A stretch of 63,614 nucleotides of DNA, counting the filler, from Jimgerdemannia flammicorona (Eukaryota), in assembly GCA_003990765.1 (NCBI GenBank). It is 3 parts of 3 records of this genome, joined end to end, with 100 filler letters (N's around TTAATTAATTAA, not from the genome) between each part and the next. Parts side by side here need not be neighbours in the genome. Positions count along the whole stretch, not along the records: positions 42,481 to 63,614 come from RBNJ01001521.1; 2 more parts are not named here. The stretch is one strand, 5' to 3'. A model generated the notes under the pieces. The model was not told the origin of the DNA, made no database searches, and saw nothing but the letters and a program-made list of their open reading frames with translations. Each line of letters begins with the position of its first letter. Position 1 is the first letter of the stretch. Of the stretch, positions 28,011-62,955 are shown piece by piece. A program made the position numbers and the translations under genes.

Positions 28011-28091
28011 AGTCTATATATCTGAAGTCTCCTAGAGCTACTTCTTGGAAATAAGCTAGAGCTGTTTCATCTTCTCTAAATAACTTATGCA

Positions 28092-28094
<3 letters not shown>

Positions 28095-28173
<79 letters not shown>

Positions 28174-28268
28174 GTCCCTTGGACTCCGTCTTTATTACCA
28201 GTCTATGAATAAGTATACAATATCACTACCCACTATCCGATCCCCATTGGGGGGCCCCTCCCCTCCTC

Positions 28269-28321
<53 letters not shown>

Positions 28322-28553
28322 GTCCCTTGGACTCCGTCTTTATTACCAGTCTATGAATAAGTATACAATATCACTACCCACTATCCGATCCCCATTGGGG
28401 GGCCCCTCCCCACCTCTTCACGTATAAAGATCACCCTCTCATCAATAACTCCAACTCTCCCACCACTCTGACCACAGATTTTCACCACCAAGTGGCGCCT
28501 CTGACCCCCCTGCAGCCCCCAACCAAGCCACCAGCCTGTCAAGGTATCCTCCA
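28095..28553 (-). mobile_element. 5'-truncated L1 3' end with duplicated terminus and two poly(A) tails, inside one TSD
   Basis: TSD aacttatgcactc at 28082-28094 and 28554-28566; T tracts 28095-28170 and 28274-28318; ~100-bp unit at 28171-28271 and 28319-28419; encodes the ORF2 C-terminus (LTGWWLGWGLQGG..), as at 42260. Confidence 0.9.
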
Positions 28554-39600: not shown

Positions 39601-42380
39601 TGGGGGTCCATTGGATGAGATTGAAAGAGGCTACAAAGGTCTATTGGGGAGAAGCTGGTTGAGAAGTGGGGAGACAGAGGAGGAAGTGCACAAGGTGTGC
39701 TTCCAGCAGACTGAGGAGATTGCAAATGGATTGGGCAGATTTGCTTTCTTCAGATGGGGTGGAGGATTGGAGGATAGAGCAGGCAAAATTGGAGATAGTG
39801 GAACTGTAACAGGTATTGAGAGAGGAGGAGGAGACCCATATGTGAGGCATGGCTGCTAGACTATGGTAGCAGGGACTTGAGGAGGGTGAGCAGCCTACTA
39901 GATACTTATCAAGACTCCTCAAAGCTAGGAGAGTGCGACATTGGTGGGATGGGGTCCTGGATGCCGATGGGGACATAGTACATAGAACACAATAAATCCT
40001 AGGGGTTCTGAAGGCAAGATGGCAGGGTTTGTAGAGTGAGGGAGAAGGGGGTGCTGATGAGGTGGTGATTGCAGATACACTAGAGGAGTGGGGGCCACCA
40101 CAAGTAGACAGACTGTGTGACTTGATCTTACCAGTGCAAGGAGAGGAGATCCAGAGTGTCCTGGCAGCAACTAAACTTGGAACAGCGCCAGGGGAGGATG
40201 GATTACCATGGGACTTCTGGAAGAAGATGGTGAAGGTCTCCGGAGTTTTGGGTGAGATGGCTGCTCTCTGTGACTACATTCTTCAGAGTGGCAAGTGAGT
40301 GGGAGAGCAGGACCTTGGGCTAGTGGCCTTATTGTACAAAGACAAGGGGAGGAGGGAAGACTGGAAGAACTGGAGACTGATCATGCTTCTGGATATGGAC
40401 AGGAAGATGGTGACTAAGATGATTGTCACAAGGCTGCAGAAAGTTGCCCAACAGGTGCTGGGAGAGGAGCAGCAGAGCTTTGTTGGGGGCAGACTTATAA
40501 GGGATGAGACTGCATGGGTGCATGGGGTCATTGAAGGGACTCGGGCTTGTGGACTGAATGGAAGGTTGGTCTTTTTGGACCAAGAGAAGGCTTATGACTG
40601 TGTATGGCAAGTTTGGCTGGGCTAGGTTTTGGATCAAATTGGTGTTCCCTCAAGATTTTGGGCTTTTATATTGAATCTGCTAGAGAGCAGTTGGGCAGTG
40701 CTGATGTGTAATGGTCACCATGGTCTGGCGTTTTCCTTGGGGAGAGGAGTACCTCAGGGGGACCCTCTGTCCCCTATCCTCTATGCCCTTTCATTAGAGC
40801 CATTGATGGATAGGATTCGCCGGAAGGTGGCAGGGCTCTCTATATATGGTATAGTGTGGAAGGTGGGGGCCTTTGCTGATGACATAGTGGTTGGACTTGG
40901 GTCTGTGGCAGATGTTGAGACACTTAGGGAGACAGTAGAATGATATGAGGCTCACTCTGGGGCGAAGCTCAACTGGCATAAGTGTGAGATGATAGTGCTG
41001 GGGAATAGACTAGTGGGTGGGGACATCATTGGAACAATTGTCCCTACTGGTGAGGTGGTGCAGTACCTGGGTATCTTTCTTTCTATATATGGTTCTGTCT
41101 TGCCACAAGTGTGGTGGGAGAGCAGGGTGACCATTTGGGGAGAGGCCCTTCAAGATTGGGGAGGCTGCCATATTTCTCTGGTAGGGCAGGTTTCAATTCT
41201 GAATGTATACTGGTTCCCCAAGCTGTGGTATGTGGCCTATCACCTAGACTTCCCAGCTTGGGTGGTGAAGAGGCTGACAAAGGTGGCTAGAGATTGGATT
41301 TGGGCAGAGAGAAGGTCCCAGATCAGTTGGGATACTCTTACAACACCAGTGGTCAGGGGAGGACTTGGCCTTGTGGATTTCCCTAAGCAGTTGTACTGCT
41401 TGTGAGCCTGGTGGTTGAAGAGAGCTGCTGAATTGCAGAGAGGAGGTTGGGTGTCTCTGTTGCAGAAGGTGTGGGAGATGAGAACCTCCCCTCAAGGGTC
41501 CTCTGGAGATCTGCTCTCTTTGATAGGGTTGAATGGAATTCGGTAGCTGTAGTTTAAGAGCTTTTGGTAGGGAGTGGTAGATGGAGCACACCGAATTGGC
41601 CTACACTGGCAAGGTAATGAGAGGGAGGTGATGTGGGGGCCTTGTATGTGGTGATGGGATAGACTGCTCCTGGGGGGTGCTTCTCTTACAATGTTTGATA
41701 TTGGGGATGGGGTGGAGTATCAGCAGGGTCTTGGCCAGGATCTTTGGCCAAGTGGCTGGCAGGCAGCAGGGATCGGTAAGGAGTGGGACTGGGCAGGTAT
41801 CTGGTCCTGGAGTACTGAGGTGTGGCAGTGGCTTCCTCCCAAGTTCTGGGTGGTATGGTGGAGAATGCTGTGGAGGAATGTCATGTTGAATTTCCATACT
41901 GGGCATCTAGTAGATGGTGGCCATTTTGATTGTGAGGAGTGTTATGATATTGAGCAAGCTGGGGATTATGTGCAGATGCCAGAACATTGGTTGGGAGAGT
42001 GTGAGGTTCTGGGGGAATTTTGGGTAGAAATAGGGAATAGACTGGGTATGGGGCATAGGCCAGTGAGGGAGGGGGGCCACTGGGAGGACTTGAGATCTCA
42101 GCTTATGGGTGGGGTGGGTGATAGTTGGCTTACTGTAGGGTAGGTATTAGCAGTATGGGTGGGACTGGCAGGACATTGGCTTTTTGTATTTAAGGAGGGG
42201 TGATATTTGGGGCTGCAGGAAAAGATATCAAGGTGGGAGGAGTTGTTGGGAGATCTGCTAACTGGATGGTGGGTGGGTTGGAGTCCTCAGGGAGGGCGAA
42301 GGCACAGTTTAGTGGTAAGGATCTATGAGCAGAGTGGTGAGAGGGTGGAGATTGTGTTAAACAAAGTAGTCTTTCATCAG
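36622..42380 (+). mobile_element. L1-clade LINE family A, copy 2, near full length: ORF1 ~36706-38730, ORF2 ~38763 to gap (APE, RT, Cys-rich domain); multiple stops
   Basis: APE: SLNVNGLR, DFN, TRIDW, WSDH. RT: APGEDGL, LDQEKAYD, GVPQGDPLSP, AFADD, YLGI. C-terminal CEEC..EHWLGEC. Confidence 0.92.
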
Positions 42381-42480
42381 NNNNNNNNNNNNNNNNNNNN
42401 NNNNNNNNNNNNNNNNNNNNNNNNTTAATTAATTAANNNNNNNNNNNNNNNNNNNNNNNNNNNNNNNNNNNNNNNNNNNN
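42381..42480. other. Assembly gap with synthetic linker
   Basis: 44 N + TTAATTAATTAA + 44 N. Confidence 0.97.
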
Positions 42481-42520
42481 AAAATGTATGCAAAAAAAAA
42501 AAAAAAAAAAAAGATCTATA

Positions 42521-42803: not shown

Positions 42804-43197
42804 TGTAACATTTTAGTATAGTTTATTTCTTTTCTTTATCTTTTCTCAATATTCTACAACCTTCCAGTACTTTCCAAACACTTAGAAATTCTTTCTTAGT
42901 ACTGAACATCCACTAGTACTTATTTAGCTAGTCACTGAATGTTCTGGAAACTTGTAGAACTTTATTTGTCATCTTTACTGAGAACTTCTCTCTTGGCATT
43001 TTCCTTTGATTTCTCAGATCCTTCCAGATCCTTCTTTCAGATCTTGTATAAATATTCCCTTTGTTCTTATGAATAAATACTCAGAATATTTTCTTCCAGA
43101 AATCCTTTAAGAATACTTGAATTCTTAAGTATTTCTTCAAGCTACTTAGAACCACCAGAACTAGTTGCTTTCTCATTTAGAAACTAGAACTATTACA
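42804..43197 (+). mobile_element. Solo LTR (394 bp) related to the chromovirus LTRs at 49765 and 55416
   Basis: TGTAACA...TATTACA; 5-bp TSD aatcc/aatct; end aactagaactattaca is the reverse complement of those LTR termini. Confidence 0.85.
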
Positions 43198-43849: not shown

Positions 43850-45057
43850 ACTAACCCCCAATCTTGTAATTTGCCTCTATTGAGCCAAGCATATTATAAT
43901 ATGCTTATATTTCTTGTATATTTTATTCTCTTTTTTATATATAAGTATTATGATATTCTAGACTAAGTTGAGTCAGAAGGTTGTATGATTCAACATCAAT
44001 TTAGCTATCTTATATACTAGATATGAATTGATAACTGCCACATCTAACAACTAAAAGAAGAGTAGCATTTAATTCTGACAAGCTGTAATTTGCATATGAT
44101 AGTGCTCTCAATATTGATCAATAATATCAATACCTCTCATATGATAATTGTAATCATTGATGATCTTGAGAATTGCTATGTTGGCTTGAGATTTATCTTC
44201 TCAGATTTTTTAAACTTAAGGCTTATTGATATTGATAGATCTTAGATAATAATATTTACATTCTACTTCTCATCTAGCTTTAATTTTATAAATAGTAGCT
44301 AGTATAGTAATAATGCTATTATCAATCCACAGTAGTGTGAGAATATTGTTGACAATAATACCTGATGTAGTATTTCAATTAAGCATTAAAACAGTCTGTT
44401 TATCAACCTTGAGTTGTATTGGGAATTTTTTTGAATCTGTCCTAACTATTTCACATATGCTGATTACTTTGGATTAAAGATATTTAAATAGCTGAATACT
44501 AGAGAAGTAATTGTCTATATATATGTTGAATGCTTGAGCTTTCTATAGTAATTACTTAGTAAGATAAATTATACCACATATAGTTTCACTGAGTTTGTAT
44601 TTACCTTTACTGACTTTTTTTATCTCTCTGTTATCAGAAGTATGAAAAAGTAGAAGAAATGACCAAGTATAGCTAAAATCACCAAGGTGAGGATTTTGAA
44701 CTCTTTTTTAATTAGCTTTCCTTTTATATAAAAGATATGTATACTCTTTCTTAAGAAAATTATCATTATTTCATCAATAGATATATTTGACTTTAGTTGG
44801 TATATCTTTTGAGAGATTGCCTGAATGTATAACAATAATGGCTCAACTTTTGAGTAATAGTATATCTTTTTCATTAATATCTTTTTCACTGATATCTTTT
44901 TCACTAATACTAGATAGAAAAAAGTGAAGGTATCATCTGATTTATTAAAAGTAGATTAACATCATATACTTCAGCATTTAGTAGATTGGTCTTCAACTAT
45001 CTCTACTCTACTAACTTTCTATATCTCTATAGTAGAAAAGACTAAGATAAATAGCAG
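43850..45057 (-). mobile_element. piggyBac-type transposase pseudogene, catalytic/C-terminal part
   Basis: KVEPLL..ISIDEIMIIF..H..IKGK, IYMDNYFSS, WIDN, DYNYHMRGIDIIDQ, LLDVAVINSY. Termini not located. Confidence 0.85.
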
Positions 45058-48000
45058 TAGAGAAGGAGGGCCCAGCAGGAGCCAGGGGAGTGAATCTAGA
45101 AACAGTATCAAAGTGAATAGATGATATATAGAAGAGTATGTATAAGGGGGATGAATAAAGAATATAATCAAAAATATATCAGTTGTTTATTACTATGTAA
45201 AAACACAGTCCTTATATATAAAATACAATATCCCAAAAGGGAGAACATGCCACAACTCAGAGTGAACTAAATTAGAAATCACATGACTGCCAGAGATAAG
45301 TAGAGATAAAGGGGAAGCCAATCTCAGTTATAGAATAAAAATCACAAACAAATACAAACAAACAAATCCAAATCCAAATTGAGATTAAAAAACATCCTTG
45401 CCCCCTCTGGGGTCTTGTGCTCACTTTGGAGTCTTGGCCTTACTCTACTCCTCTCCACTGCCTTCAGTTCCTTGCTTTACTTAGGCTCACTGTGGCTTGC
45501 TCCATTTTGACCTCACCCCTCACTCACACTCACCTCTCTGGGGTCTGTGGATGTTTTTTAATCTTGATTTGGATTTGTTTTGTTTGTGTTTGTTTGTAAT
45601 TTTTATCCTACAACTGAGATTGACTCCCCCTTTATCTCCACTTATCTCTGGCAGTTATATGGTTCCTAATTTGGTTTGCTCTGAGTTGTGGCACATTCTC
45701 TCTTTTGGGACATCATATTTTGTATATAAGGACTATGTTTTTATATAGTAATAAATAGCTAATGCATTTTCAGTTATGTTCTTTATTTGTCCCCCTTATA
45801 TATACTCTTTTACATGTCTTCTATTTGCTTTAATACTGGTTCTGAGTTTGCTCCTCTGGCTCCTACTGGACTCTCCTCCTCTACTGTTATACTGTCTGCC
45901 CTCAGGGCCTCTGTCTCCATTGACAAGATTATGGATAAGGTTCTTCCTCCTCTCTCTCCCCCACTTTCATCTCTACTACTGTCTTATTTAAGACCTATAT
46001 CTTATCTGCTATTCTTTCCCTCCCTCTAGACCTTCATCCCTCTGGTCATCTACTCCTTTCTCAGTTCTGGTCAGTCCTTGCCCTCTCTGTCAAGGAGGCT
46101 TGTCTCCATCATAACATCAATGTCATCACTCTACCCACTATCCACCACTCCATTCTCTCTGAGGCCCACTACCAAGTCCTCTCTAAAGAGGTTCATGCTA
46201 CCATCACTGCCACTAAGCTTGCTACTACTGATGCTGCTACCACTACTACTACTACTGCTTCCACCTCCTTCCACCATACCTGTACCTCTTTTGTGGTCCT
46301 TGCCTCCTCTCACTTTGTGGATACTACCCCTTTTTGTAACTTTACCATCTAAGATGTTCTCTCTGCTGCTATTGACATTAACACTGTTTGTTGCTTCCTC
46401 CTTGCTGGTACCTCTTTTGTCACTCATCTTTATGAGTAAGAAATGTCACATGCTGCTGCTGCTGCTCATACCACCACCACTGCTCCTCTGCCCACCTCTC
46501 TCAAGGTTTTGGTCTCTGAGGCCACCCATGTCAAGGCTTGTACCACTGCTTGTGCTGAGGTTTGTTTTTTTGCTATTGCTACCACCAAGGCCCCCACCAA
46601 GGCCTACACTAAGCCCAACAAGACTTTGTCAATCTCTTCTTAGTTCTCTTCTCCCACTAAGACCTTCTCCTCCATTCTTCCTGCCCTCAAGCATGGCTAC
46701 CAACTTAGTTCTTGCCCCATTGGGGCCTGGCCCTATGCTGTCTGCTCCAGTCACCTCCACCATGCTTACTGGCACCTGGCCAAGTCCATCTGCCTCCATA
46801 GTAGTGTCCCTCATACTGCTGCTCCTTTGGCTGCTCACTTACCTTCTGCCTCCTCCACCAGCTTCTCCTCCACCTCCTCTACTTATGCCCCTGAATGTAA
46901 GAGCTATATAAAAGCCTATGGCTGCAAGGTCTGTAACTCTAATAGAGTGTGCTCCTGCTCATTGGGCTTGCTGCCTTCAAAAAAAGTCAGAGGGAAGGGG
47001 AAGGCCTCCTGCTCTTAAACTTCTCTCTAGTATAGTTCTCTCCTGGTGTCCTTATTCTTTCTCAGATTCCATCATCACTTCTGGTATACCCTGAGTGGTT
47101 TCTCATACTGTCCCCCCTTTACTGTTCCCAGTTGCTTGTCTCAAACTTTCAGATTTATTCTTCTCTTAGAACACTTTTATCTCCTTCTTTTTCTTTAGCT
47201 GACTGCCCCCTTTCTCCCCTTTAAGTCTTTGCCTTATTTTTGGATCCTCACTTCATTTTTCTTATGACTCTCTCACAATTATCCTTCACTGACCTGGCTT
47301 ATCTTACACACTTTCATCATACTCTTGACCTTGCCATCTTCTTTGAGAATCATGGTAAGATGCCCTCTTACTACTATGTTCCTAGCAATTGGGTCTCCTC
47401 TCTCAATGTCTCTTCACACTGTATATTTCTTGACATGGCTTGCTCACTGTCCATTCCTGGATATACTCACTCTTGCTTAGTTTCAGACCATACCATGCAT
47501 ACTGCACTTAAATCAGTCAAGCAATTGCCTTTACACTTGCTTATAGTCACTGATAAGAATCAGGGTTTTACACTTATTCCTAAGTCACTCTACCTTGATG
47601 GCCTTTTTGCCCTCCTTCAAGCCATGGCTTATAAGTCTAGTACTCTTGAATTAGATGAGATTCTCACTCTTCTTTGGATTTCTCTGGCTCATATCAGATT
47701 ACTTTTAGATTCTCCTTTTGTGAACTCTATTTTTAACTTCTTCTAGGACTCTTTGTCCTTACTAGACATTTGTCTTCCAGTTTTTTATACTTTTCTTAAA
47801 GTCCACAAGCCTACTTTGGCTTAGTATCCCATTATGGCTGCTTATAGCTCACTCTCTACTAAGATTTTGAAGTAGTTATCCCACTTCTTTCTCTTTTGGA
47901 TAGCTCTTCTTCAATACTATATTGGGTCTGAGTATACAATTCTTTATAATACTCAGGAGCTCATCCTTCTCTGCTCCACCATTATGTCTATTTACTATTT

Positions 48001-49764
48001 TTCTCTTTTTTTTTTTTTTTTTATAACCTCTTAGACTCTTTTCTTTATTAATACAGCCATCTATTCTCTATATAATACACTAAGCCCACCCTATCTAATC
48101 CCCCTAGAGGGGCTCTCCACCCCTACTCTCTCTTGATTAAAGACTACTAGATCATTAATCACCTCCACCTGCCCACCACTCTATCTATAAATCTCTTCTA
48201 TCAAATGGTATCAATGCTCACCCTGGAGACTCCATCCAATCCACCACCCTATCAGTATATCTCCCATCAACCCCTCCCATCTTAATAATCTCTCCTACAA
48301 ATCCAGCTATCATCTTTTCTCAAAAATAAAGAGCCAATGTCTAGCTAGCTCTACTCATATAGCTAAAATCCACCCTACAGTGAGTCATTTATTGCCCACT
48401 CCACCCATCAACCTAGTTCTCAAATCTTCCCAGTGACCTCTCTCTCCATCAGATCTCCTCTTCACACCCAGCTAGTCCCCTACTACTATCCAAAAGTCCC
48501 TCAGAACCTCATACTCTCTCAGCCAATATTCTGGTATCTGCACAAATCTCTCAACTTGTCCTACATTATAGTATACTTCACATTCCAGTAGGCCACCATC
48601 CACCAGATGTCCAGCATGGAAATTCAATATGATATTTCTCTGTAGTATCTATCACTATACTATCCAGTACTTGGGAAGAAGTCATCTCTGTACCTCAGCA
48701 CTCTATACCCAGACTCCTGCTCAATCTCACTCCTTACCAATCCTCACTGCTTGCCAACTGCTAGGCCAAATATTCTGATCAAGTCCCCTCTGACACTTTA
48801 CTCTATTACCAATATCAAACTCAATAAGAGGAGTACTCTCCAGAAGCAGTTTGTCTCATCTCTATATAGCTAGTCCCTACAGTATTACTCCTTCATTACT
48901 ATATCAGTATAAGTCTATATAGTGTACTCTATCTGCTATCTCCCACCAGAAGCCTTTATACTGTAGCCAATGGCTTCTACCCAGGTTCACCAAGGAGAGC
49001 AAATCCCCTGAGGACCCTCTTGGAGAGAATCTCATCTCTCATACCTTCTGCATCAATAGCACCCATCTCCCTCTCCTCAGTTCCACAGTCTGCTTCAACC
49101 ACCAAGCTCTCAGATAGTGTAGTCTCTTAGGAAAGTCCACCAGCCCTAGCTTCTCTTAAACTACCAGCATTGAAATGATATCCTAACTGATCTGGAACCA
49201 CCTCTCAGCCCAAATCTAATCCCTAGCCAGCTTTATCAGTCTCTTTACCACCCAAGCTGAGAATTTCAAGTGATATGTAATATATCACAGCTTAGGGAAT
49301 CAGTAGATATTCAGAATTGTTACTCAGCCTACCAGAGAGATATGGCAGCCTCCTCAGCCTCAAAGTACCTCCCCCCAGATGGCCACCCTTCTCTCCCACC
49401 ATATCTGCAGTAAGACTGATCCATATACTAAAAGAAAAATACCCAGATATCTCATTACCTCTCCTGCTAAAACAATTGTTCCAATAATATCTCCTCCCAC
49501 TAATCCATTTCTCAGCACTATTGTCTCATATTTATACTAGTTGAGTTTTGCTCCAGAGTATACTATATACTATTTTACTATCTTCTTGAGAGTCTCAATA
49601 TCTGCTACTGATCTAAGTCTAACCACTATGTCATCTGCAAAAGCCCCCACCTTCTACACAATACTATAAATAGCAAGCTCTGCTACCTTCTGCTGAATTC
49701 TATCTATCAAAGATTCCAATGAAAGGACATATAGGTGGATCTCCCTGAGGAACTCCTCTCTCCA

Positions 49765-52700
49765 TGTAATAGTTCTAGTTTTTTTAAGAGAAAGCAGCTT
49801 AATCTGGAAGTTCTAGTTGGCCTAAAGTAGCTTGAAGAGATACTTAAAGGTTTAAGTGTTCTTGAAGGATTTCTGAGAGAAAATATTCTGAGCTTTATTC
49901 AGGTAGAGAATAAGGATATTTATATATAATCTAAAAGAAAGATCTGGAAGGATCTTGGAAAGAAAGAGAAATGCTAAAAAATAGATTCTTGGCAAAGCTG
50001 ACTAATACTATTCTACAATATTCTGAAAGGTTCTATGACTAGCTAAGACAAGATACTTGGTATCAAGGAAAGACAAGAATGTTCTAGTAGTATCTGGGTA
50101 TCGAGAGAAGGTTTTTAAGTAAGTAGAAGGTGGTAGAACATAGTAGAATGTTCAAGAAATGACAAGAAAAGACTAACTAAAAGATGCGAAAATGTACTAA
50201 GACTAAATATAACTGTGAAATTGTTATATCTCTCTCTTCTTAAGAACCAAAATTCTTATTGAGTTCTTAGGTAACATAAGACTAGATATACTTAACCAAA
50301 ATTTCTCAAACTTGTATCAGTGCATTGGTGGGGATTGACCATCCTTGTATAGAGCAGAGGGCCTATTATCAGACTAACTAATTGGGAGGGATTTGAACTC
50401 AGCTAGTAGCTTTATTTTAGTAGACTTCTTGTTTATTAAATGTTCTGTTAGTTCTGGGGTCCCAAAGTAAACTTCTGATATATAAGGTACTAGTCATTGC
50501 TATAGATTATCAATAATCCAAAGAAGTCACTATAGAGATTAGGCAATACATTTTGCCTTGAAGTCTTGAACTAGATCTTAAGAGTTCTTGAGGTTGACCA
50601 GTGGTTCCCAGATAGTATCATATTCAGGGTAACCTATCCACTTGACTAGGTATTCAGGATAGCAGTAGTGGATTCATTTGTTAAGAATTTTCTCTACTTT
50701 ATACTTGATATGGTCTTCAATAATTACAGGGGCAGAAGACTTAGAAATTCAACCAGAGTAGGGCAGTGACTAGTTCTAGGTCTTGAGGTGTGATACATGA
50801 AAGACTAGGTATACTCTCATGGTTTCAGGTAGCTTGAGACAGTAGGAGGATGCAGAGACTTATTCAGTGATCTCAAAAGGTCTAATATACTTAGGTTAGA
50901 ACTTGTTTGAAGGGTAGTTGACTTGAGATTATATCTTGAGGTTCTCAGAAGACAGTAGGACTTGATTTTCAACAGTATAAGTAATATCACAGTATTTCTT
51001 ATCTGCATACTTGGCTTGATACTATTGAGTCTTCTGAAGATTCACAGTGGCAATATTGAGTAGTTTGTCCATTTTGTCTATAAAGTTCTTAGTGGTTGGA
51101 ACTTGTATTTGACTGGTTTTCTTAAAAGAGAATAGACTTGCAGAGGTCTTGGAATCTTGACTATAGAGTAACTGGAAAGGGGAAAGACTAATAGATGATT
51201 GGATGGTATTATTGTATACAAACTCCACATAAGTTAGATAGTGGTCTTAATTATCTTGCTCATAAGAAATATAGTTTCTAAGCATTTGTTCTAAAGTTCT
51301 ATTCATGTGCTTGGTTTTTCCATCAGTTTGTAGGTGAAAGGCAGTAGATATAGCCAATTGGGTTCCAAGGGTCTTGAAGAGAGTTTTCCAGAAGTGACTG
51401 GTGAACTTGGGGTCACAATTACTGATAATTACTCATAGTAGGTTATAGTGAAGGAAGATGGACTTGAAGAAGATTCTTACAATCTCAGGTGCAGTAACAT
51501 TGATAGTAGTTAGTTCAGTAACCATAGTCTTAGTCAGATGGTCAATAAATATGATAATAGCATCAGTACTAGATTGAGTTTGTAGTAGTTGGGTTATAAA
51601 GTCCATGGTAACTTGCTTGAATTTCTTGGTGAGAATTGGCAGTAATTATAGCAAACTAGCTGATGCTTGGTTGATAGACTTGTTGTGCTGACATATATTA
51701 CAGCTGGCAATATAGTTCTTGATTTCCTTGACCATACTTGGCCAATAGTAGTAGTATTGAATATTCTTGACAGTCTTCTCAATTCCCAGGTAACTGACAA
51801 GAGGAGAGTCATAGTGTTCTTATAAAACCTTGTAGTATAGATTTATGTTTTCAGATAGGTAGACTTGATCTTGATGATAGATCAGGTTGTTCTTGACAGT
51901 ATATGTATCCTTGAGCTCATTCGAGAAAACTCTAGTGGTAACTGTATCTTCTTTGTAAGCTTGTCTGATTTGGTCTAGGAATTCTGATACCAAGGTGATC
52001 TGTATGATTGTGGCAAGGTCTGGGTATCTTGATAAGGCATCTGGTACTACAAATATCTTGCCAGGCTTGTAGATGATCATTGAGTTGAAGGTTTGAAGCT
52101 TAAGGCTCTACTTGACTTATAGATGTGACAGGGTAGATTGGGTGTTGATGTATTTGAGAGATTGATGATCAGTGATAACATCAAACTCAATACCTTCTAG
52201 ATAACATCACCAGTGATCTAGTGTATGTATTATTGCCAGTAGTTCCTTCTTATGAGTGGCTAGCTTTTGTTTAGCTAGAGCCAACTTGTGGGACTCAAAA
52301 GCAATAGAATGATGTTTTTTGCCATTATCTCTTATAACAGGACTGCTCTAATGATAAAATTTGACACATTAGTGGTGACCATGAATTTTAAGCCTTGATC
52401 TGCATTATGCAGGACTGGAGTATAGGTCAGGCAGTTCTTGAGTTCTTAAAAGGCTTGTTGACAGAAGAGGTCTCAGATGTAGGGTACATAGTAGTCTAAG
52501 TGCAGGGCCTTCCTCATAAGGTTAGTCAGTGGCTTGGCAATACCAGAGAAGTTTCTGACAAAGCAGCAGTAGTAGCTAGCTAGACCAAGGAAGGATTAGA
52601 GTTCTGTAAAGTTTGACAGAATGGGTCATTCTTCAATTACCTTTATCTTATATAGGTCTACTTGAATTCCTTGTATAGAGACAATATAGCCAAGATATTT

Positions 52701-55700
52701 GACTTGTTCCTTAAAGAATTCACACTTCTTGAGCTTAGCATAAAGCTTATATTTTCACAGGATCTCTAGGACTATTCAAATGTATTTGAGATGTTCTTCT
52801 TTAGTTGCACTAAAGATTAGAATGTCATCAAGATATACTAATAGGAAAATAAATAGTTAGTTCTTGAATATCTTGTTTATTAGGGTCTGGAATATGGTGG
52901 GTATATTGGTGAGATCAAATGCTAAGACCAGAAATTTGTAGAGTTCAAAGGGGGTTATAAATGCAGTCTTGGAAATGTCTTCTGGCTTGATTTGAATCTG
53001 GTGGTATCCTGACATGAGGTCTAACTTAGTGAAGTACTTGGTATTCTTGAGAGCATCAAAGATTTAATCAATCAAGAGTAGTAGATAGCAGTTCTTAACA
53101 GTGAGTTTGTTGAGTACATAGTAGTCTATGTATATTTGCAGGGTGCCATCCTTCTTCTTGATGAATAAGACTAGTGAGCTATAAGGAGATTTACTTGGCT
53201 GAATGGCTCCTTATACAAGTAGTTCTTCTAGTTCTTTTTTAACTGCTTCAATTTCAAGTGATGATATATAATACATATGTTTCTTAGGTAATATAGCTCC
53301 TGGAGTCAGTTTAATTTCATAATCAACTTCTCATATAGGTGGTAGACCAGGTAGCTTGTCTAGAAAGACATCTTTGAATTCTTCTAGTAGTAACTTGATA
53401 CTTTCATTGACTAATAGTCTCTTGTCTTATTTCTTAAAACAGACTATTACAATAAAGGTATATATTGTCTTCTTAAGTGCTCTCTTGTACTGTATAGCTG
53501 ATAGTATTGCAATCTGGATCTTGCTTATGGTCTTGTCTGTCTTGATAGTGATATTGGCTCCATCTTAGAGTAGGGTGACTTCATTCTTATACCAATTGAT
53601 GTCTGGATTGTATTTTATAAGCCAGGGTTTTCCTAAGATCAGATTATGATCTCCTAGTGATGCAACCTCAAAGTCTACTTGTTCCTAATATTTCTGGATC
53701 TTGATGGATAGTTTGGCAGCAATTGACTTGATGGGGTACAGAGTATCATCTGTAGTAACTATACTATTGTTCTTGGGTACAGACTTGGTAAGAATCTTGA
53801 GGCTTTTGATGAAATTCTGATTGATGAAGTTCCCTGTAGCTCTGCTATCTATAAGTACTTGAACTTCTTTTCCTTTGACTAGGCCTTTGAAAATGAGTAT
53901 AGCTTGAGCTCAATTTTCACTAAGACCTGCTGCTTGATCAGTGCTACTAAAATCTTTTTAATCTCATTTAGTCTCAAGGAGTTCTTGGACTTCTGTAATC
54001 TTAAGTTGACTGGCTTTTTCTAGGATCATTTGTGCAACTTGGTCTCCTTTCTTGACTGTGTAGTCTTGATCCTTCTGGTTGATAAGCAGAACTTGAACTT
54101 GTCTTTGAAAGTCTGGATCAATAACACTAGTATCTACATCTAAATGATATTTGATGCTAAGTCCTGATTACAGTACAATTCTGATATAATGTTCTTCAGA
54201 ACATTGAACTGCAATTCCAGTAGGTACCAGAGTTTGGCCCTTGGCTAGAATAGTGACTTGTTTGACTGAGTGTAGGTCAAGACCAATGGCTCCTTCTATT
54301 TGATATTGAGAGATCTGGGCCTTCAGATGAAGCTTCTTGATCTTAAGTCTGAGTTTACTGGTAGTAGGATTGACAGATGTGTCTTTGGACAATATGGTGA
54401 CTGGTCTTAAGAGTTCACTAGTCTTCTTAGGATATTTAGTTGTAATGTATCCTATTTGGCAATAGAAGAAATAGGCTCTGGATTTCTTCAGGTGGTCCTT
54501 TTCTTTAGGGATAAGCTTAGTGTTCTTTTTGTTTATGGTGTCTAAGTCTATTGGTGCTGGGCTAACTATCCTTGGTTGGTTCTTATGGTAGTTCTCAAAG
54601 TAGTTCTTCTTGTGGTGTTCTGGTTCAAAGCAGTTACTAAAGATAATAACATCAAACCTATCAGCAATTCTTATAGCTTCATAAAGATTTTTGGGCTCTT
54701 CTAGCTTGATCTTGACTTGTATATTTCCCTTCAGGTCTTGGATATAGCAGTCTATCTTTTTGTCCTCAGATATTGCTGGTAGCTCAAGTAGGATTGATAA
54801 GAATTGTATATTGTAGTTTTGCACAAACTTGAGTTACTTAATGTTTACTAGCTTGTCTCTGGCTAGTTTGGTAGTATTAGCAGACTTGAACTACTTGTGA
54901 AGGGCTCTCTTGAAGGCTTTCTAGTCTCTGATTCATATATATGAGTGTACAGAGGTAACTATGATATAATTGTACCACCAGATGGCTATATTTCCTTGGA
55001 GGAGTGTGGCAGCAAATTGAACTTGCATGTCTTCTTTCATTCTTATAAGCTCAACATATTGGTCCAACTGGAAGGTCTATGCATCTGTAAATAGCCCTCC
55101 TTGATAACTGTCAAAGATATCTGGCTTGAGTGGCTTAAAACTGACTAGTACTATAGCAGGATATAATGTATTCACAGTTCTTGTTTTTTGCTGTTCTAGT
55201 TATGCTTGAAGTTCTTGGATTTGGTGGGCTATAGCATTGATCATATCTTCTATATTGAGCTGTAATCCTCCTGCTTCTTCTGTAGCAGAGGGGTCTGGCT
55301 GATAGACTGACTCTTTGTAGCTCATTTCAGGTTCATATAACTATTTATGACAGGTTTCCAAATTTGTGTGAGGTTTCTTAATAAGGCAAGGTATAATGAC
55401 ACTACTGCTATCAAGTGTAATAGTTCTAGTTGGCCTAAAGTAGCTTGAAGAGATACTTAAAGGTTCAAGTGTTCTTAAAGAATTTCTGAGAGAAAATATT
55501 CTGAGCTTTATTTAGGCAGAGAATAAGAATATTTATATATGATCTGAAAGAAAGATCCAAAAGGATCTTGAAAAGAAAGAGAAATGCCAAGAAATAGGTT
55601 CTTGGCAAAGCTGACTAATACTATTCTAAAATATTCCAAAAGGTTCTATAACTAGCTAAGACAAGATACTTAGCACCAAGGAAAGACAAGAATATTCTAG

Positions 55701-55841
55701 TGGTGTCTGGATACTGAGAGAAGGTTTCTAAGCAAGTAGAAGGTAGCGGAATATAGTAGAATATTCAAGAAATGACAAGAAAAAACTAACTAAAAGATGC
55801 AAAAATGTACTAAGACTAAATATGACTATGAAATTGTTACA
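49765..55841 (-). mobile_element. Complete but decayed Ty3/Gypsy chromovirus: LTRs 55416-55841 and 49765-50228; gag-dUTPase-PR-RT-RH-IN-chromodomain
   Basis: Paired LTRs; decayed PBS (ttgatagcag); PPT aagaagagagaga; TSD ctcca/tctca (cccca in uninterrupted L1 copy 2); PR LIDSRATGNFI; RT YLDDILIF; chromodomain YKVEKIL..EYLVKWIGYPE..WEP at 50581-50703. Confidence 0.92.
53937..54350 (-). pseudogene. dut: dUTPase domain within the chromovirus polyprotein
   Basis: All five trimeric-dUTPase motifs, decayed but in order: GAIGLDL, L*SGL, TSVIDPDFQR, KGDQVAQ, ETK*D*KDFSSTD. Confidence 0.88.
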
Positions 55842-58800
55842 TCTCAAGGGAAATACCATATCCTGGTATCCATTACATATTAGTGCTACTCTACTACCCT
55901 CTAACAGATTCAATATAGAAGCTCAAAATAGTAGAGGAACTTCTATTCTATCCAGTATCTTGCCCAGCCACACCTGCCAAACATGATCATAGGTCTTCTC
56001 CTGGTCCAAAAAGACCAGTCTCTCATCCAATCTACTAGCTCTTATCTCTTCAATAATGCTATAGACTCAGGCTGTCCCATCTCTAATAAGTCTGCCTCCA
56101 ACAAAGCCCTACTGTTCCTTACCCAATACCTGCTGGACAACCCTCTGTAATATTGTCACAATTACCTTAGTCACTATCTTTCTGTCTATATCCAGAAGCA
56201 TAATCAGCCTCTAGTTCTTCCAATCCTCCCTCCTCCTCTTATCTTTATATAACAGGGCCACCAGCCCTAGGTTCTGTCCTCCCACTCACTGACTTCTCAG
56301 AAAAACAAAATCACAGAGAGCTGCCATCTCTCCTAATACTCCAGAGACCCCTACTATCTTCTTCCAAAAGTCCCAAGGTAGACTATCCTCTTCTGGTACC
56401 ATATCAAGCTTAGTTGCCACAAGGACTCTCTGGATCTCCTCCTCTTGGACTGAAAGAATCAAATCTCCTAGGCCCTCCACTTGTGGTAGCTCCCAGTTCT
56501 CCAGAGTGACTCTAATTGCCTCTGCATCAGCACTCTCTTCTTCCTCACTCTACAGACCCCTCCACTACTCCTTTAGCAACCCTAATATCTATTGTGTATT
56601 ATGTACTATTTCCCCCTTAGCATTAAGGACTCCATTCTACCAATGTTGTACCCTTCTCACCTAGAGGAACCTTGACAAGTACCTAGTTAGCCTCTCTCTC
56701 TCCTCAAGCCCCTACTACCTCAACCTAGCTGCCATTCATTTTATACATATCTCCTCCTCCTCTCTCAATACCTGTTGCAACTCTATTACTTCTAGTCTAG
56801 CTTGCACTAACCTCCAATTCTCCACCTCACTAGAGTTTATCAAATCAGCCCATTCTATTTGTAATCTAACCAGCCTATTGGAAGTATACCTTACTCTTTT
56901 CCTTCTTTACCTTCCAGCATCCCTACCAACTTCTCCCCAGTAAACCCTTACAGTCTCTTTCAACTTCATCTACCAGACATCCACTTACAAGACCTTATAT
57001 ATCTAGCTTATAATCTTCACCTAAATGTCCTCTATCCAAAGGTCCTATAATACCTTCTCAGTTAGTAGAGAGAAGTTAAGGTACTAATATCCAGATCTAT
57101 CTCCACTCTCTCCAAACTGTCCCTGTTCTAACAGTCCCCAGTGGTCTGACCATAGGCACCACTCTACCTCCAGAGTCCTCCAAACATCCAGGCCCCAGCA
57201 TTCAGCTATCAGTATCCAGTCAATTCTTGTACCAAGGTCATTCACTCAATATATATAAATTCTCTTTTCTCTCTACTATATTCTGCCCATATCCCCTAAG
57301 GAACTAAGGTTCTCCATCTCCTTCCATACATCCAGACTGCCACTCCTTCCACTAGCACTCCTCCCTCCATTAGTTCTATCTAACTGAAGATTTTACACCA
57401 TATTGAAGTCATCTTCCAGAATATCCACCCCATCCTCCAAGAATGTACCCTCATTCAGAAGATCCTTAATCCATATAATCTGATCACCCCTAGCTACTAG
57501 GTAGTAGTAAGAGTCAACTCTCACTGGCTCCCACTCAGATCAACACTATTTCCTCTACACCAAATATTCTTTCCAGCTTCTGATTCCGCCTAAATCCCCT
57601 TTATCTCTCTATGCCAAAATTGCCACTTTGTCAATCCAAGCTATAGCTCCTCTCCATTCTCTAGTCTACTCTACTTGATCTACATCATCCTCACAATGTA
57701 TATCCTGTAGCAGAAAGAGATCAGTCTCCAATCTCTTTAGTCAAGTAAAAATGTTCTTCTATTGCCCAGATTCTCATAACCCATTCACATTCAGAGAAAA
57801 AATGTTAGTTATACTATTCATTGGGAATAACATTTAAAAGTAGAGTCCTGCTCATTCTCTATAAATCCACATCCCTCTCCTCTTGTACTATGTCTAAGTT
57901 ATGTTTAGCAGCCAATCTCTCCTCTTTAGTCTCCTTTGCCTCCATTTCAATCAGAAGTTCAGCTATCTCTCCATTCTCCTTTTCTTCAAAGTCCTCATAA
58001 TATTCTAGGCAGACCTCTTGTCAGAGTTTCAGACCATAATGCTCTGCCCAACAGAAGGTGGTCCACTTACCAGCAACAACTACCAGCTCAGCCTCCCTCT
58101 CCTTATCAACCTCATACCCCTCTTCCTCTAGAAGAATTGCAAGCACCTCTACCTTCAGTGCCTCTACTACCTCATCACCATATAAGATCTGTGCCTAATA
58201 CTTCTTACTCATTACTCTCAGGTCCACTTCTCCCAACTCTTTAGTTATGAAGTTGTTCATCATCCAGCACATCTACAGTAGGTTTCCCACCTTTCCTCCT
58301 GGTGTTGCTAGCCTCCCAGCATCTAGTATTGTGGTATCAGCCCCTATACTCACAGTCTCATCCCACTCCTCCTCACCAACTACCACTACCTGTCCCCCTT
58401 TTGCTATGTCAGAAACTCCAAAGTATATTTACTGGGTACTATGCATTAGCACATCCTCTGCTACCTTGCTCCTCTCAACTAGATCCCTTCTGATAAGAGG
58501 AGGAGTGTCATTCAATTCCTCTTCCCAGACTTTGAATATACCATCAGTATAAGAGTTATTGTGCAGTATTATCCTGGCCCCATCCAGGCCCTCCTCTCTA
58601 TTCCCTCCTCTCTTACCAGTCCAGACATTCACTTTGGCACTTCCAGACCCCTCAGCTCTACCAGTATTCTTCTTCACCTCTTCTTTTATGCTTGCTAATA
58701 ACTTTCTCTGTCTCTTGCACCCTTGAGCCCTCTCTCACTGCCTCTTATCAGTATAAATATATTTTCCATCTACAATCTTCAAGTATATAGACTCTACATA

Positions 58801-61477
58801 TAACTTCTAGGCCTTCACTCTCTGCTCTACTGCTCCACTCATCTCCTCCAGAGTCTCCAACAGATCCTCCTCCTCCTTCTCACTCCCTTTTACCCTTGAT
58901 ACCTTACAGATAAAGGCCCCCTACAATATAACTAAAGGCCAGTCACTTATCTTCCCTATAGCCTCTCTCTCTATCAGTCTAATCCTGATATCAACATCAC
59001 CAGTTCTGAAAGTGGTCCCCTCTTATATCTGGAATCCAATATTGACTATATTGCCATAATCTGCTATCATCTCCTCCACTCTCTTCCTAGTCTCAACCTT
59101 CATCACTATAGACACCTCTTCACTAGTAACTGAATCACTCTGGGGTCCCACCTCAAACACTACACCATAGGGACCACTATCTCTCTCACCACTACTCCAG
59201 TCTTCAAAGCTTCCTTCAGTAGACTTACCTCTTTGAAACCCACCTCCACCCCCTCCAATTTCTTCAGAAACTTCACTGAGGTAGCTCCAGCCACTTGCTC
59301 TGAGATAATCCCTAGAATCATTCTTGCTATTACTACCAAGCTCCAGAAGTACAAAGTTACAGCAAACTCCAAAATCAACTTCTTGAGTAATGGTACCATA
59401 GTCAGTCCCATCATACCATCAGCCAGGTCCTCTTTTCTCTTTGGTCCCACCCATCTGATTCTACCATCAGCAGTCACATTTGGATTTTTTTTCAGATTCC
59501 CAGTTATGTCACTATCAGTAGTCCCCTCCCTACTCCTAGCAGCTACTCCACCAGCTCTTCCACCCACTAGCTGATGAGCTACATCTCCCACTTCCCCTTC
59601 CCTCTACTTTCTCTTCCCCTCTGTCTGTTCATCATGAGATCCAACAGACCATCTACTAGCCTTCAGCATATTGGCGAAGCTCCTCTCCTTCTGCCCTCCT
59701 ACTCCTCCTCTAGTGCTGCTACTACCACCTGAACTGCTCTGCCCACTCAGACCACCAAAAGACCCCATCTCTAATCCATACCCTCATCTAACATATTGCC
59801 AATCAAAGGCTCTAGGTCTATCTGATCTAGTATGTACATTAGCTTACTTATTGGTTACTATGACCTTAGTATCTTTCTCTAATAAATACTCTGAAAGTAT
59901 GTTATAAAAGTATATGTAACATAAGTTATAACTGAGAAAGGTATGCACCATTTTTCTCATTTAACCTCTAGTGACTTCTCTTCTTTCTATACTGCTATTT
60001 GTTTTGATGAGATCAATAATTATTTTCACTTCTTAGGTTTCATTGTTTTCTCTTTAGATTCCCCAGTTTTACTGGCTTCTATCATTAAGCTTATACTCCT
60101 TGTCTATAGCTCCAACTACTTTGAGTCAGCCCTTGGCTCTTTTCACCAGACTTCTGATATTACTATGAGAACAAATTGTGCCCTCACCCTTACCAATCTT
60201 GTTGATCTGGCCTATGAACTTTATGTGATATGTAATCATTCTTCATCTTTTTCCATTGCATTCTGGACTGGAGATATTTTTTTTCACTAATATATTGATG
60301 ACTTTATTGTTCTTACTATTGCTGGTATTGATATTCCTAGTGTGTTCCATAATATCTACCCTCTCTATTATTCTATTACTTGGGTGTAATATAACTAGTA
60401 TTCCCTTTTTGGACCTTTTTATTTCTCTTTCTCCCTTCCAAACTATTATTTATTCTTGTTTCCCCCATTCTCAACAGTTCTCTGACTTCCATTCTAATTA
60501 TCCTCATTATACTCTCTTTAAATGTATTCATGGTGAGGTTCATCATCTTGCTCTATGCTACTCCTATCATTCTGACTGAGTGTCTACTATTCAGGTCCTT
60601 GGCAACTTTGTGGTCCATCATTATGTCTACCCTATTTCTATTGTTCATGATCTGCTTGCTTCTGTCAAATGGTCTGTTGTTTACTCTTTTCTTCTCTCTC
60701 TCCATTATCCTCCTTTTCTTCCCTCCCTCCCTCCTTATCCTCTCTATACCCTCTCTTCATTCTCACTCCCAATTCTTATTATACTATTCAATTGTACTTA
60801 CTGAGTTACACAATGCCCTGATACCATCCTATACTCTTCTCTTTCTTGCCATAGACTTTTATCTCTTCCTTGATGCCCTCTGATTGCTTATTTGTATTTT
60901 TCTTCTGTTTTCTCTTTAATTCATCACTCTTGTTTTGTATTTTCATTACCTTCAGGTGCCTCCAGCTCTGCTGGAGAGGATTAAAAAACATTCTTGCCCC
61001 CTCTGGAGTCTCACACTTGCTCCAGGGTCTCAGCCTTACTCCACTCTTCTCTGCTACCTTTGGCCCCTCACTTCACTTGGGCTCACTGTGGCTCACTCCA
61101 TTTTGGCCTCACCCCTCACTTGCTCACCTCTTTAGGGTCTGTAGATGTTTTTTAATCTTGATTTAGATTTGTTTTGTTTGTGTTTATTTGTGATTTTTAT
61201 CCTATAACTGAGATTAGCTCCTCCTTTATCTCTACTTATCTCTGGTAGTCATGTGGTTCCTAATTCAGTTTTCCCTGAGTTGTGGCACATCCTCTCTTTT
61301 GGAACATCATATTTTATATATAAGGACTGTATTTTTACATGGCAATAAACAGCTGATACATTTTCAGTTATATTTTTTGTTTATCTCCCTTATATATGCT
61401 CTTCTATATATCTTCCATTCACTTTGACACTGGTTCTGGATTCACTTCTCTGGCTCTCACTAGGCCCTTCTCCTCTA

Positions 61478-62050
61478 ATACTGATAAATATAAGGAGTTC
61501 TAGAATTGTTAGACTATACTACTCTCTACCTCTTCTGGTATCCTTCATTATAGTATAATAGTTTGTATTAGCAATAATTTATTCCAGAAAAGAAGAGATA
61601 GAATATATTGATAATCTGTAGAATTTTACCTAGTGAGGTTATAATATTATCAGTAAGGTAAGAGTATAGATGTAAGAGAAAAGACTTGATATGTTGAAGA
61701 GATGTGAAGTTGGAAATCTTAAAAAGAATGAGTTTCTTGAAAAGAATGAATTGATCAATAGAAAGAATGAATTAATCAATAGTATCTTTTAAGTTAGCTA
61801 CCCTATACTTTATCTTTCTTTTGCTATTACTCTTATCAATAGATTCTTCAGGCTTATCTTCTTTAATAAGATCTTCCATAGTATTTTTGTTGTATAGTAT
61901 CAAACATTATTTGGATTATATCTTGAATTTGAGTTTGTCCTCTACTTCAGACCCACCACTTTAGACTTCACTTCAAATTTGAACTCATTACTGTCAGATT
62001 CATCACTATCAGATATATTATCACTATTAGCTAAAGCTAAAGAATTGCCT
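61478..62050 (-). mobile_element. piggyBac transposase pseudogene, N-terminal part
   Basis: LE*IIANTNYY..GRE*YSLTILELLIFISI continues into IYLSLF..IR*YLHF on the other side of the PLE (below 45057); acidic N-terminus. Right boundary approximate. Confidence 0.7.
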
Positions 62051-62379: not shown

Positions 62380-62955
62380 CCCTTACAGCTCCAACCTATA
62401 CAGCCTATACAATCTATATAGCCCATATAGCCCATATAGTCTACATAGTCTATATAGCTTATATAGCCTATATATCTCATATAGCTTATATATACAGCTT
62501 GAATGTTATTGATTAGTATTGCCTTATATATATATTGATATATATTAGATAAGTATACATTATAAAGCTCTAATTATATATAATTGATTTTTATAACTTA
62601 AAAAACCTCTTGTATTGTATATATATTGATATATTGGTATATATATTAGTATATATATTGGTATATATATTGATATATTGATAAGTATATTGATATATAT
62701 GTTATATTATGCTTAATTTTTTATAGCTTAAAAAGCTTCTTATATTATATACATATTGATATATATTGGGCATTTTACAAAGCTCTAATCTTTTATATAG
62801 GCTCAACCACTCTACCAACTGCTTCTCTATTGTTTTACTCTACTGCTCTACTCTACTACTCTACTGCTCTGTTCTATCACTCTACTTCTCTACTCTACTA
62901 CTTTACTACTCTATTGCTCTACTGCTTGCTGCTTACTATTTACCACTACTATTAC
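62380..62955. repeat. Low-complexity repeats: ~10-bp tatagcc(c/t)a units, TATAT(T/G) tracts with a ~45-bp direct repeat, ctact/ctct repeats
   Basis: Directly visible; may be subterminal repeats of the piggyBac. Confidence 0.6.

Follow-up and report, generated by a model that had tools for sequence, protein, structure and literature searches.

Inverted and direct pseudo-LTRs meet within a short self-complementary stem in an apparently endonuclease-lacking Penelope-like element of Jimgerdemannia flammicorona

The stretch of DNA analysed here (the window) comprises 63,614 nucleotides, filler included, from the Jimgerdemannia flammicorona assembly GCA_003990765.1. It joins parts of three records, the last of which (positions 42,481 to 63,614, from RBNJ01001521.1) carries what appears to be a 16-kb element bounded by 500-bp repeats. 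We found that this apparent unit is a 3.6-kb Penelope-like element (PLE) on the plus strand together with two nested insertions. The insertion reads, in order, as a candidate duplication, an inverted arm, a direct pseudo-long terminal repeat (pLTR), a leader with a reverse transcriptase (RT) open reading frame (ORF) of together ~3.1 kb, a second pLTR and a candidate duplication, once a long interspersed nuclear element (LINE) is left out of the count (Table 1). The RT ORF is decayed; it extends over ~47275–60984 and is interrupted by the LINE, which lies on the minus strand at 48006–59949.

The left end of the PLE is a fold-back. Self-BLAST of the window aligned the two left arms, 45051–45397 and 45890–45549, in inverted orientation at 82.8% identity over 349 nt, and a repeat search was concordant. 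The left inverted arm (45058–45396) likewise matched the right copy (61477–61144) in inverted orientation (83.5% over 340 nt), while loop plus arm (45383–45883) matched 60979–61477 directly (82.4% over 501 nt). All three arms align over their full length, and their outer ends coincide to ~0–7 nt. A preliminary description of this DNA had proposed a layout of inverted arm, loop and arm with a further direct copy on the right, pLTRs in both orientations, and ends of the composite resembling terminal inverted repeats (TIRs). All of this is borne out, with coordinates correct to ~7 nt. The pLTR itself is ~505 nt long and consists of a stem arm, a 150-nt loop, a second stem arm and a 325-nt tail. 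Since the stop codon of the RT ORF (TAA, 60982–60984) falls inside the left stem arm of the downstream copy (60979–60993), the pLTR corresponds exactly to the 3′ untranslated region (UTR).

The point at which the inverted arm turns coincides with this stem. On the left, 45382–45397 pairs with 45549–45564 over a perfect 16 bp. On the right, where a 15-bp stem had been described, the stem is present, and it is perfect over 13 bp only (60979–60991 with 61145–61157), 15 bp being reached with 2 mismatches. The left and right copies become directly similar from the first base of the stem arm onwards (45383, equivalent to 60979), and the self-complementary 15-mer is exactly where inverted arm and direct pLTR join. 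The earlier claims that similarity is bounded by the stem and that the inversion turns there thus hold, the latter exactly in the single copy examined. Exact inverted repeats of at least 13 bp with a loop of at most 200 nt number only four in the whole 63.6-kb window: the left fold-back accounts for two and the right stem for a third, the fourth being an unrelated 36-bp pair where the window begins. As 50 block shuffles of the window gave a mean of 0.3 such repeats and a maximum of 2, the right stem does not look like a chance match, which agrees with the earlier view that the stem is encoded by the element. The stem is unlikely to be there by chance and can be taken as intrinsic. In minimum-energy folds it closes the loop both in the plus-strand RNA (z −2.2) and in the minus-strand DNA (z −1.3).

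Homology confirmed the assignment of the element to the PLEs. A read-through translation of 59925–60395, with X at stops, was searched against 1.84 billion representative proteins and returned 4 matches at E ≤ 1e-3, the fourth seemingly spurious; it matched P0001 at E 1.2e-25. With P0001 as tblastn query, residues 3–405 span the LINE gap (E 1.7e-49), residues 3–66 falling at 47798–47989, residues 70–212 at 59952–60386 and residues 208–405 at 60364–60945, and residue 14 of P0006 maps to 47315. The ORF contains a frameshift near 60375 and in-frame stops. P0001 has 71 relatives at E ≤ 1e-3, among them P0005, a protein of Gigaspora margarita, and P0006 (both E 5e-44), as well as remoter amphibian RT proteins; Gigaspora is the source of the nearest named RT relative. 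A further step, from P0006 to P0199 (E 9.7e-10), reaches a protein with RVT_1 and, C-terminal to it, a GIY-YIG domain scoring 29.8 bits (cut-off 22.6). This is the arrangement of canonical PLE clades; in Naiad/Chlamys the endonuclease is N-terminal. The RT alignment contains the DKN motif ('TDKNQG', ~47560), 'KVHK..RPI', 'DFxSxY', 'GIAMGTNCA', 'RYIDD', 'PFLD' and the thumb, with motifs named as in PMC8557442 and PMC13159263. The earlier identification as a PLE is therefore upheld by a chain of RT homology reaching a protein with both RT and GIY-YIG, by an RT of the type that marks PLEs (a DKG/DKN motif, here DKN, ahead of RT motifs 1–7 and the thumb), and by direct pLTRs with an inverted, 5′-truncated copy adjoining the upstream one.

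Three other owners of the 500-bp repeats were considered and rejected. Against an LTR retrotransposon, inspection by eye showed no TG..CA ends and neither a primer-binding site nor a polypurine tract, and the repeat begins at the RT stop codon. Against a DIRS-like element stand the PLE type of the RT and the failure to find a tyrosine recombinase. The interior LINE runs in the opposite direction, with a poly(A) and a duplication of its own. Further copies of the PLE were sought in the window as well. Sensitive blastn with 45891–48300, 59900–60990 and 45040–45900 returned the known copies only, and tblastn of the window with PLE proteins returned this ORF only. An nhmmer search with an arm profile at E ≤ 10 marked 7 places: the three arms (E 1e-122 to 2e-126), the 34-nt stem region at 60978–61011 (E 0.006), and three weak matches of 32–101 nt (E 0.59–8.3), which we take as chance.

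We found no sign of a GIY-YIG endonuclease (EN) among the 112 ORFs of the window, nor among 13 ORFs searched at E ≤ 10, and the 1.4-kb leader and the pLTRs gave no signal for one. The end of the PLE ORF aligns with the C-terminus of P0001, and the nearest apparently complete relatives, P0005 (554 aa) and P0006 (622 aa), have RVT_1 only or no domain. With GIY-YIG absent and the ORF ending at the P0001 C-terminus, the element belongs with the EN-deficient PLEs, a recognised subgroup, and judged by domain content this copy and its nearest intact relatives are without an endonuclease. Hammerhead ribozymes gave no Rfam match at E ≤ 5 in 44800–48200 or 59800–61800, and the hammerhead core CTGANGA..GAAA has 3 matches in the window, none of them in any of the three pLTR copies. 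Decay of ~8% per copy may hide a hammerhead. Naiads are likewise described as being without canonical hammerheads, so that the feature is not universal in PLEs (PMC8557442). Telomeric repeats, sought as (TTAGGG)2 with at most 1 mismatch, had no match on either strand of the 63.6 kb, although the unit may differ in this host; the PLE is flanked by AT-rich interstitial DNA.

Minus-strand LINE makes up most of the 15.6 kb that separates the direct repeats, and at first sight this interval is not PLE. The hallmarks of a LINE, an apurinic endonuclease upstream of an RT and a poly(A), apply to the nested insertion at 48006–59949 only. By self-BLAST this insertion is ~74% identical to a second copy at 37037–42292 and related to a third at 23639–25960. 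In the better-preserved copy, Exo_endo_phos (E 5.1e-5; 23.6 bits, just below the cut-off of 24.5) lies upstream of RVT_1 (E 1.7e-8 and 9.5e-9), and the ORFs of that copy map to 59939–48133 on the minus strand. A Ty3/gypsy element at ~49740–55845 (−), with LTRs 90.6% identical, interrupts the nested LINE in turn. Ty3 capsid, dUTPase, protease, RVT_1 and integrase zinc finger domains of this element were recognised in 5 of the 112 ORFs scanned, and a sixth ORF gave a sub-threshold, unrelated match only. The nesting order is thus PLE, then LINE, then gypsy, and it fits the divergence of the respective repeats (17.6% for the pLTRs vs 9.4% for the gypsy LTRs).

We found that the three arms have diverged to the same extent. 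Pairwise identities are 83.2, 83.8 and 83.8%, and private substitutions number 28, 28 and 26 over 339 ungapped columns, with one further three-way column. Such equal counts describe a star tree, and therefore the three arm copies arose together and were identical at one moment. Decay since insertion amounts to ~8% per arm and consists nearly entirely of transitions (78 of the 82 private substitutions). No single dinucleotide context is dominant among the 82, as judged in a check for contexts resembling repeat-induced point mutation (RIP). The three-arm consensus has no CpG left; transition bias and CpG loss together suggest deamination-type decay, whether by methylation or by a RIP-like process.

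This history bears on two explanations in which reverse transcription did not link the arms. Independent but adjoining insertions of one family, or rearrangement or recombination afterwards at the short inverted repeat, might be expected in a region that is a dense pile of nested transposons, and short inverted repeats are able to mediate template switching during replication. We consider such separate events improbable, given the equal private substitution counts, an exact junction with a 15-nt overlap and no filler, outer ends that match the element terminus, a candidate duplication enclosing the composite as a whole, and a layout typical of PLEs (PMC3846280). Palindromes are also a known class of artefact, and the TIR-like ends of the composite would suit a free-standing foldback or miniature inverted-repeat transposable element (MITE) unrelated to any retrotransposon. 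A fold-back chimera of reads or assembly would give near-identical arms, and at ~17% divergence it is very unlikely. Against a foldback or MITE-type DNA element stand the nature of the repeat unit, which is the 3′ UTR of an RT ORF and begins at its stop codon, and the lack of any further free-standing copy in the window with the arm profile at E ≤ 10. We give hardly any credence to either of these last two explanations.

At the outer junctions the evidence for a target-site duplication is slighter. The 8-mer GATAAATA is present at both (P ~0.034 against resampled local AT-rich windows), and only 4 bp of it, ATAA, are unambiguous because the inverted arm may already start at 45051. The 8-mer may be a target duplication or a priming microhomology. 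The 30–40-bp 'tail' that is an optional feature of PLEs is not seen, the three outer arm ends differing by at most ~7 nt. Short (CTCTACT)n-like repeats occur in both flanks of the PLE (45001–45012 and 62810–62926) and resemble the 3′-terminal motif of the element, CTCTACTG; CTCTACTCTACT has 6 matches with at most 1 mismatch vs 0.7 expected. These flank repeats could reflect target preference or priming microhomology.

With somewhat better than even confidence, we interpret the fold-back, which would have formed by priming from both target strands and annealing at the 15-mer, as the left end of a PLE that lacks an endonuclease, has the canonical layout and inserted once, long ago. Both 3′-OH ends of the target would have primed reverse transcription at the 3′ end of the PLE RNA. 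The two resulting cDNAs would then have annealed via the 15-mer, since cDNAs of the same minus sense are complementary to one another only where the element has an inverted repeat, and each would have been extended on the other. The expected outcome is a short minus-sense arm on the top strand beside a pLTR–body–pLTR copy, which would subsequently have decayed and received first the LINE and then, within the LINE, the Ty3/gypsy element. Read on the bottom strand, the insertion is minus-sense pLTR–body–pLTR without a break as far as the 5′ edge of the upstream pLTR, where 340 nt of plus-sense arm take over. Because both target ends would prime on the RNA 3′ end, this model accounts, with nothing further assumed, for an inverted arm that starts at the 3′ terminus of the element, and the outer end of that arm does coincide with the element 3′ end to 0–7 nt. 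Purified PLE protein is reported to nick and extend both target strands in vitro (PMC11167929).

The stem is the turning point equally if a single cDNA snapped back on itself. In that case the 3′ end of the minus-strand cDNA, lying at the 5′ edge of the pLTR, would fold onto its stem partner 150 nt behind and copy the arm. This is the model of the preliminary description and essentially the self-priming hypothesis that Arkhipova et al. (2013, PMC3846280) explicitly proposed for Penelope elements; we regard it as the main rival, possible though on present evidence rather unlikely. It reproduces the observed sequence exactly, including loop orientation and 15-nt overlap, and it makes use of a stem that is intrinsic, non-random and closes the loop in the minus-strand DNA fold. 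The direct pLTR moreover starts exactly at the stem, as though synthesis had ended there, and palindromes at inverted PLE junctions are recurrent (PMC3846280). Snap-back nevertheless calls for extension to stop 0–7 nt from the pLTR/body boundary after 340 nt, with no obvious stop signal, and it leaves the second strand of the body unprimed. A further step would also be needed to link the new 3′ end to the opposite side of the target, and a z-score of only −1.3 for the DNA fold counts against the model as well. The further claim that the fold-back primes its own second strand is not supported, as the inverted copy spans the 340-nt arm only and not the body, nor does a single copy support the claim that the step is programmed.

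Several observations also weigh against priming from both strands. Intramolecular snap-back yields the identical sequence, and the turn at the stem is seen in one copy only. Nicking of both strands by an EN-bearing PLE need not apply to an element without its own endonuclease, so that the model has to call on free ends or on an endonuclease supplied in trans. No hammerhead was found in the three pLTR copies, Pfam recognises no piece of the decayed PLE ORF even at E ≤ 10, the flanking duplication is weak evidence (P ~0.03, 4 bp unambiguous), and the fold z-scores (RNA −2.2, DNA −1.3) offer modest thermodynamic support. We favour both-strand priming over snap-back, a choice that a single copy cannot decide.

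The fold-back is another instance of a described PLE architecture, and self-priming is a published hypothesis, not a new mechanism. The novelty here is modest and lies in its occurrence in an endonuclease-less lineage at a non-telomeric site, probably in an early-diverging fungus; a literature search, which was not thorough, found no description of an inverted pLTR in an EN-deficient PLE. The origin of the tandem and inverted ends of PLEs is still unsettled, and an in vitro system has been available only since 2024 (PMC11167929). As the full inverted and direct layout is present in an element without an endonuclease domain, a cis-encoded GIY-YIG endonuclease seems unnecessary for it. This suggests, as a hint from one decayed copy, that the layout of PLE ends needs no such enzyme in cis and that inverted repeats encoded by the element guide the junction. 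A bolder proposal, which we put forward tentatively and think doubtful, is that the pLTR architecture and the turn at the stem are properties of RT and RNA, not of GIY-YIG, and that endonuclease-less PLEs bridge interstitial breaks by priming at both ends and pairing through the 15-nt stem. If so, the stem at the boundary of stop codon and 3′ UTR would serve to pair two cDNAs, or one cDNA with itself. For annotation, the locus provides a worked example of a PLE enlarged by two nested insertions.

Table 1. Parts of the Penelope-like element and of its nested LINE, in window coordinates
Feature	Position	Strand	Remarks
Candidate target-site duplication or priming microhomology GATAAATA, left copy	45046..45053	.	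8-mer common to 61483-61490
Inverted 5′-truncated pseudo-LTR (arm A′)	45051..45397	-	Minus-sense copy of last ~347 nt of 3′ UTR; nhmmer E 1.2e-123
Upstream direct pseudo-LTR, 508 bp, whole 3′ UTR	45383..45890	+	
Left stem arm, 15 nt common to inverted arm and direct pLTR (overlap)	45383..45397	+	
Loop, 5′ part of 3′ UTR, orientation as in right copy	45398..45548	+	Direct match 45383-45883 to 60979-61477
Right stem arm of left copy	45549..45563	+	
5′ leader of PLE body, C/T-rich	45891..47270	+	No recognisable domain or repeat found
N-terminal part of decayed PLE RT ORF (DKN motif, 'KVHK' region)	47275..48005	+	
LINE (apurinic endonuclease and RT), later insertion	48006..59949	-	T-run 48006-48022 is poly(A); 9-bp duplication ATTTTTCTC 47997-48005 / 59950-59958
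C-terminal part of PLE RT ORF: around DFSSFY, YIDD, PFLD, then thumb	59950..60984	+	Stop TAA 60982-60984
Downstream pseudo-LTR, 3′ UTR	60979..61482	+	Stem arms 60979-60993 and 61143-61157
Candidate duplication GATAAATA, right copy	61483..61490	.	

Metagenomes were searched for relatives with five intact proteins as query, which gave 80 loci at 24–32% identity. Inverted repeats of at least 50 bp occur in 4 of the 80 (L002, L004, L009 and L018). The loci are uninformative on the stem because they are too distant and because short-read contigs break at such repeats. Many of the contigs, which carry distant PLE-type RTs (L001–L080), have the same 91–127 nt at both ends at 100% identity; identical contig ends are what would be expected of tandem or pLTR-flanked PLE units assembled as pseudo-circles.

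Other features of the window include further members of the LINE family, of which there are at least three copies, at 23639–28200 (−), 36900–42513 (+; poly(A) at 42500–42513) and 48006–59949 (−), with ORF1, apurinic endonuclease and RT. The sense strand of the family is strikingly rich in G, and its GC skew reaches 0.45 across several kb. A diverged extra copy of LINE ORF1 lies at 26000–27979, a 146-bp tandem occupies 28126–28419 in the LINE 3′ region, and a pair of N runs at 42381–42480 hides the end of LINE copy B. The dUTPase domain of the Ty3/gypsy element sits between gag and protease, and a solo-LTR-like fragment related to the gypsy LTRs is found at 42915–43197. An apparently intact beta-tubulin gene lies at 19174–20993 (+) and has at least 3 introns, one of which contains a (CT)n microsatellite (~20190–20320). 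For its exon at 20331–20762 (144 aa), identity reaches at most 94% with proteins of chytrids (Zopfochytrium, Synchytrium) and Rozella and 90–92% with those of animals and Mucoromycota, which points to an early-diverging fungus. A 506-aa gag-like ORF with a zinc knuckle (21185–22705, −) adjoins N runs at 21141–21184 and 21197–21240. The window opens with a perfect 36-bp inverted repeat (1–36 / 167–202) around a 130-nt AT-rich spacer, which could be a small hairpin or a MITE-like element cut by the window edge.

Parvoviral terminal hairpins support rolling-hairpin replication, in which the terminal palindrome acts as a self-primer. The terminal palindrome of the PLE could self-prime in the same manner; unlike the parvoviral termini, it is present at one end only and is an integration product, not a replication origin. 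The parvoviral analogy drawn in the preliminary description is thus a loose one, none of the 112 window ORFs has a match to a Rep/HUH-type nickase, and the one copy gives no evidence of flip/flop termini. In L1 twin priming, both target strands prime cDNA, the products are joined at microhomology, and the resulting inversion is flanked by a duplication. Our model shares with it the proposed priming from both strands, the microhomology junction, the inversion and the (here candidate) duplication. The second L1 primer anneals internally, and the inverted piece is an upstream internal segment, whereas both pieces of the PLE start at the 3′ terminus and their junction microhomology is a 15-nt inverted repeat encoded by the element.

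Among PLEs, an inverted 5′-truncated copy beside the upstream pLTR is given as a general trait by Craig et al. (2021, PMC8557442), who attribute the tandem and inverted ends to "unique EN cleavage properties". The EN-deficient PLEs of fungi and protists are said not to share the Penelope organisation (PMC3846280). By ORF content rather than phylogeny, the present element resembles the EN-deficient Coprina and Athena PLEs, with an RT-only ORF, a DKN motif, RT motifs and thumb (PMC13159263, PMC8557442). Fungal hosts are a further likeness, as are direct repeats around the ORFs, which are described for the telomeric Coprina-1_Alen in a 2026 paper (PMC13159263). Coprina and Athena occupy chromosome ends, with telomeric repeats on either side, and contain hammerheads as well as telomeric repeats in reverse complement (PMC13159263, PMC8557442); the element described here differs in having no telomeric repeats or hammerhead in the searches above and in possessing an inverted pLTR.

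The typical Penelope structure is an ORF between two pLTRs with an adjacent, shorter inverted pLTR, and palindromes of 18 and 38 bp are described at pLTR 5′ ends in other PLE families (Arkhipova et al. 2013, PMC3846280). In Pen2a_Av, an EN-bearing Penelope element of Adineta vaga, inverted and direct pLTR share 15 bp and the insert is flanked by a 9-bp duplication (PMC3846280). Compared with Pen2a_Av, our element has an ORF without GIY-YIG and longer pLTRs (~505 bp vs ~200 bp), no hammerhead or 30–40-bp tail was found in it, and its host is probably a fungus, not an animal (PMC3846280). Its inverted pLTR is also ~160 bp shorter than the direct one, vs 37 bp in Pen2a_Av (PMC3846280), because its stem arms lie 150 nt apart. 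A short duplication surrounds the Pen2a_Av insert (PMC3846280) and a candidate one surrounds ours, and the two elements are the same in having direct pLTRs that bound the ORF, a shorter inverted pLTR and an overlap of 15 bp between inverted and direct copies (PMC3846280).

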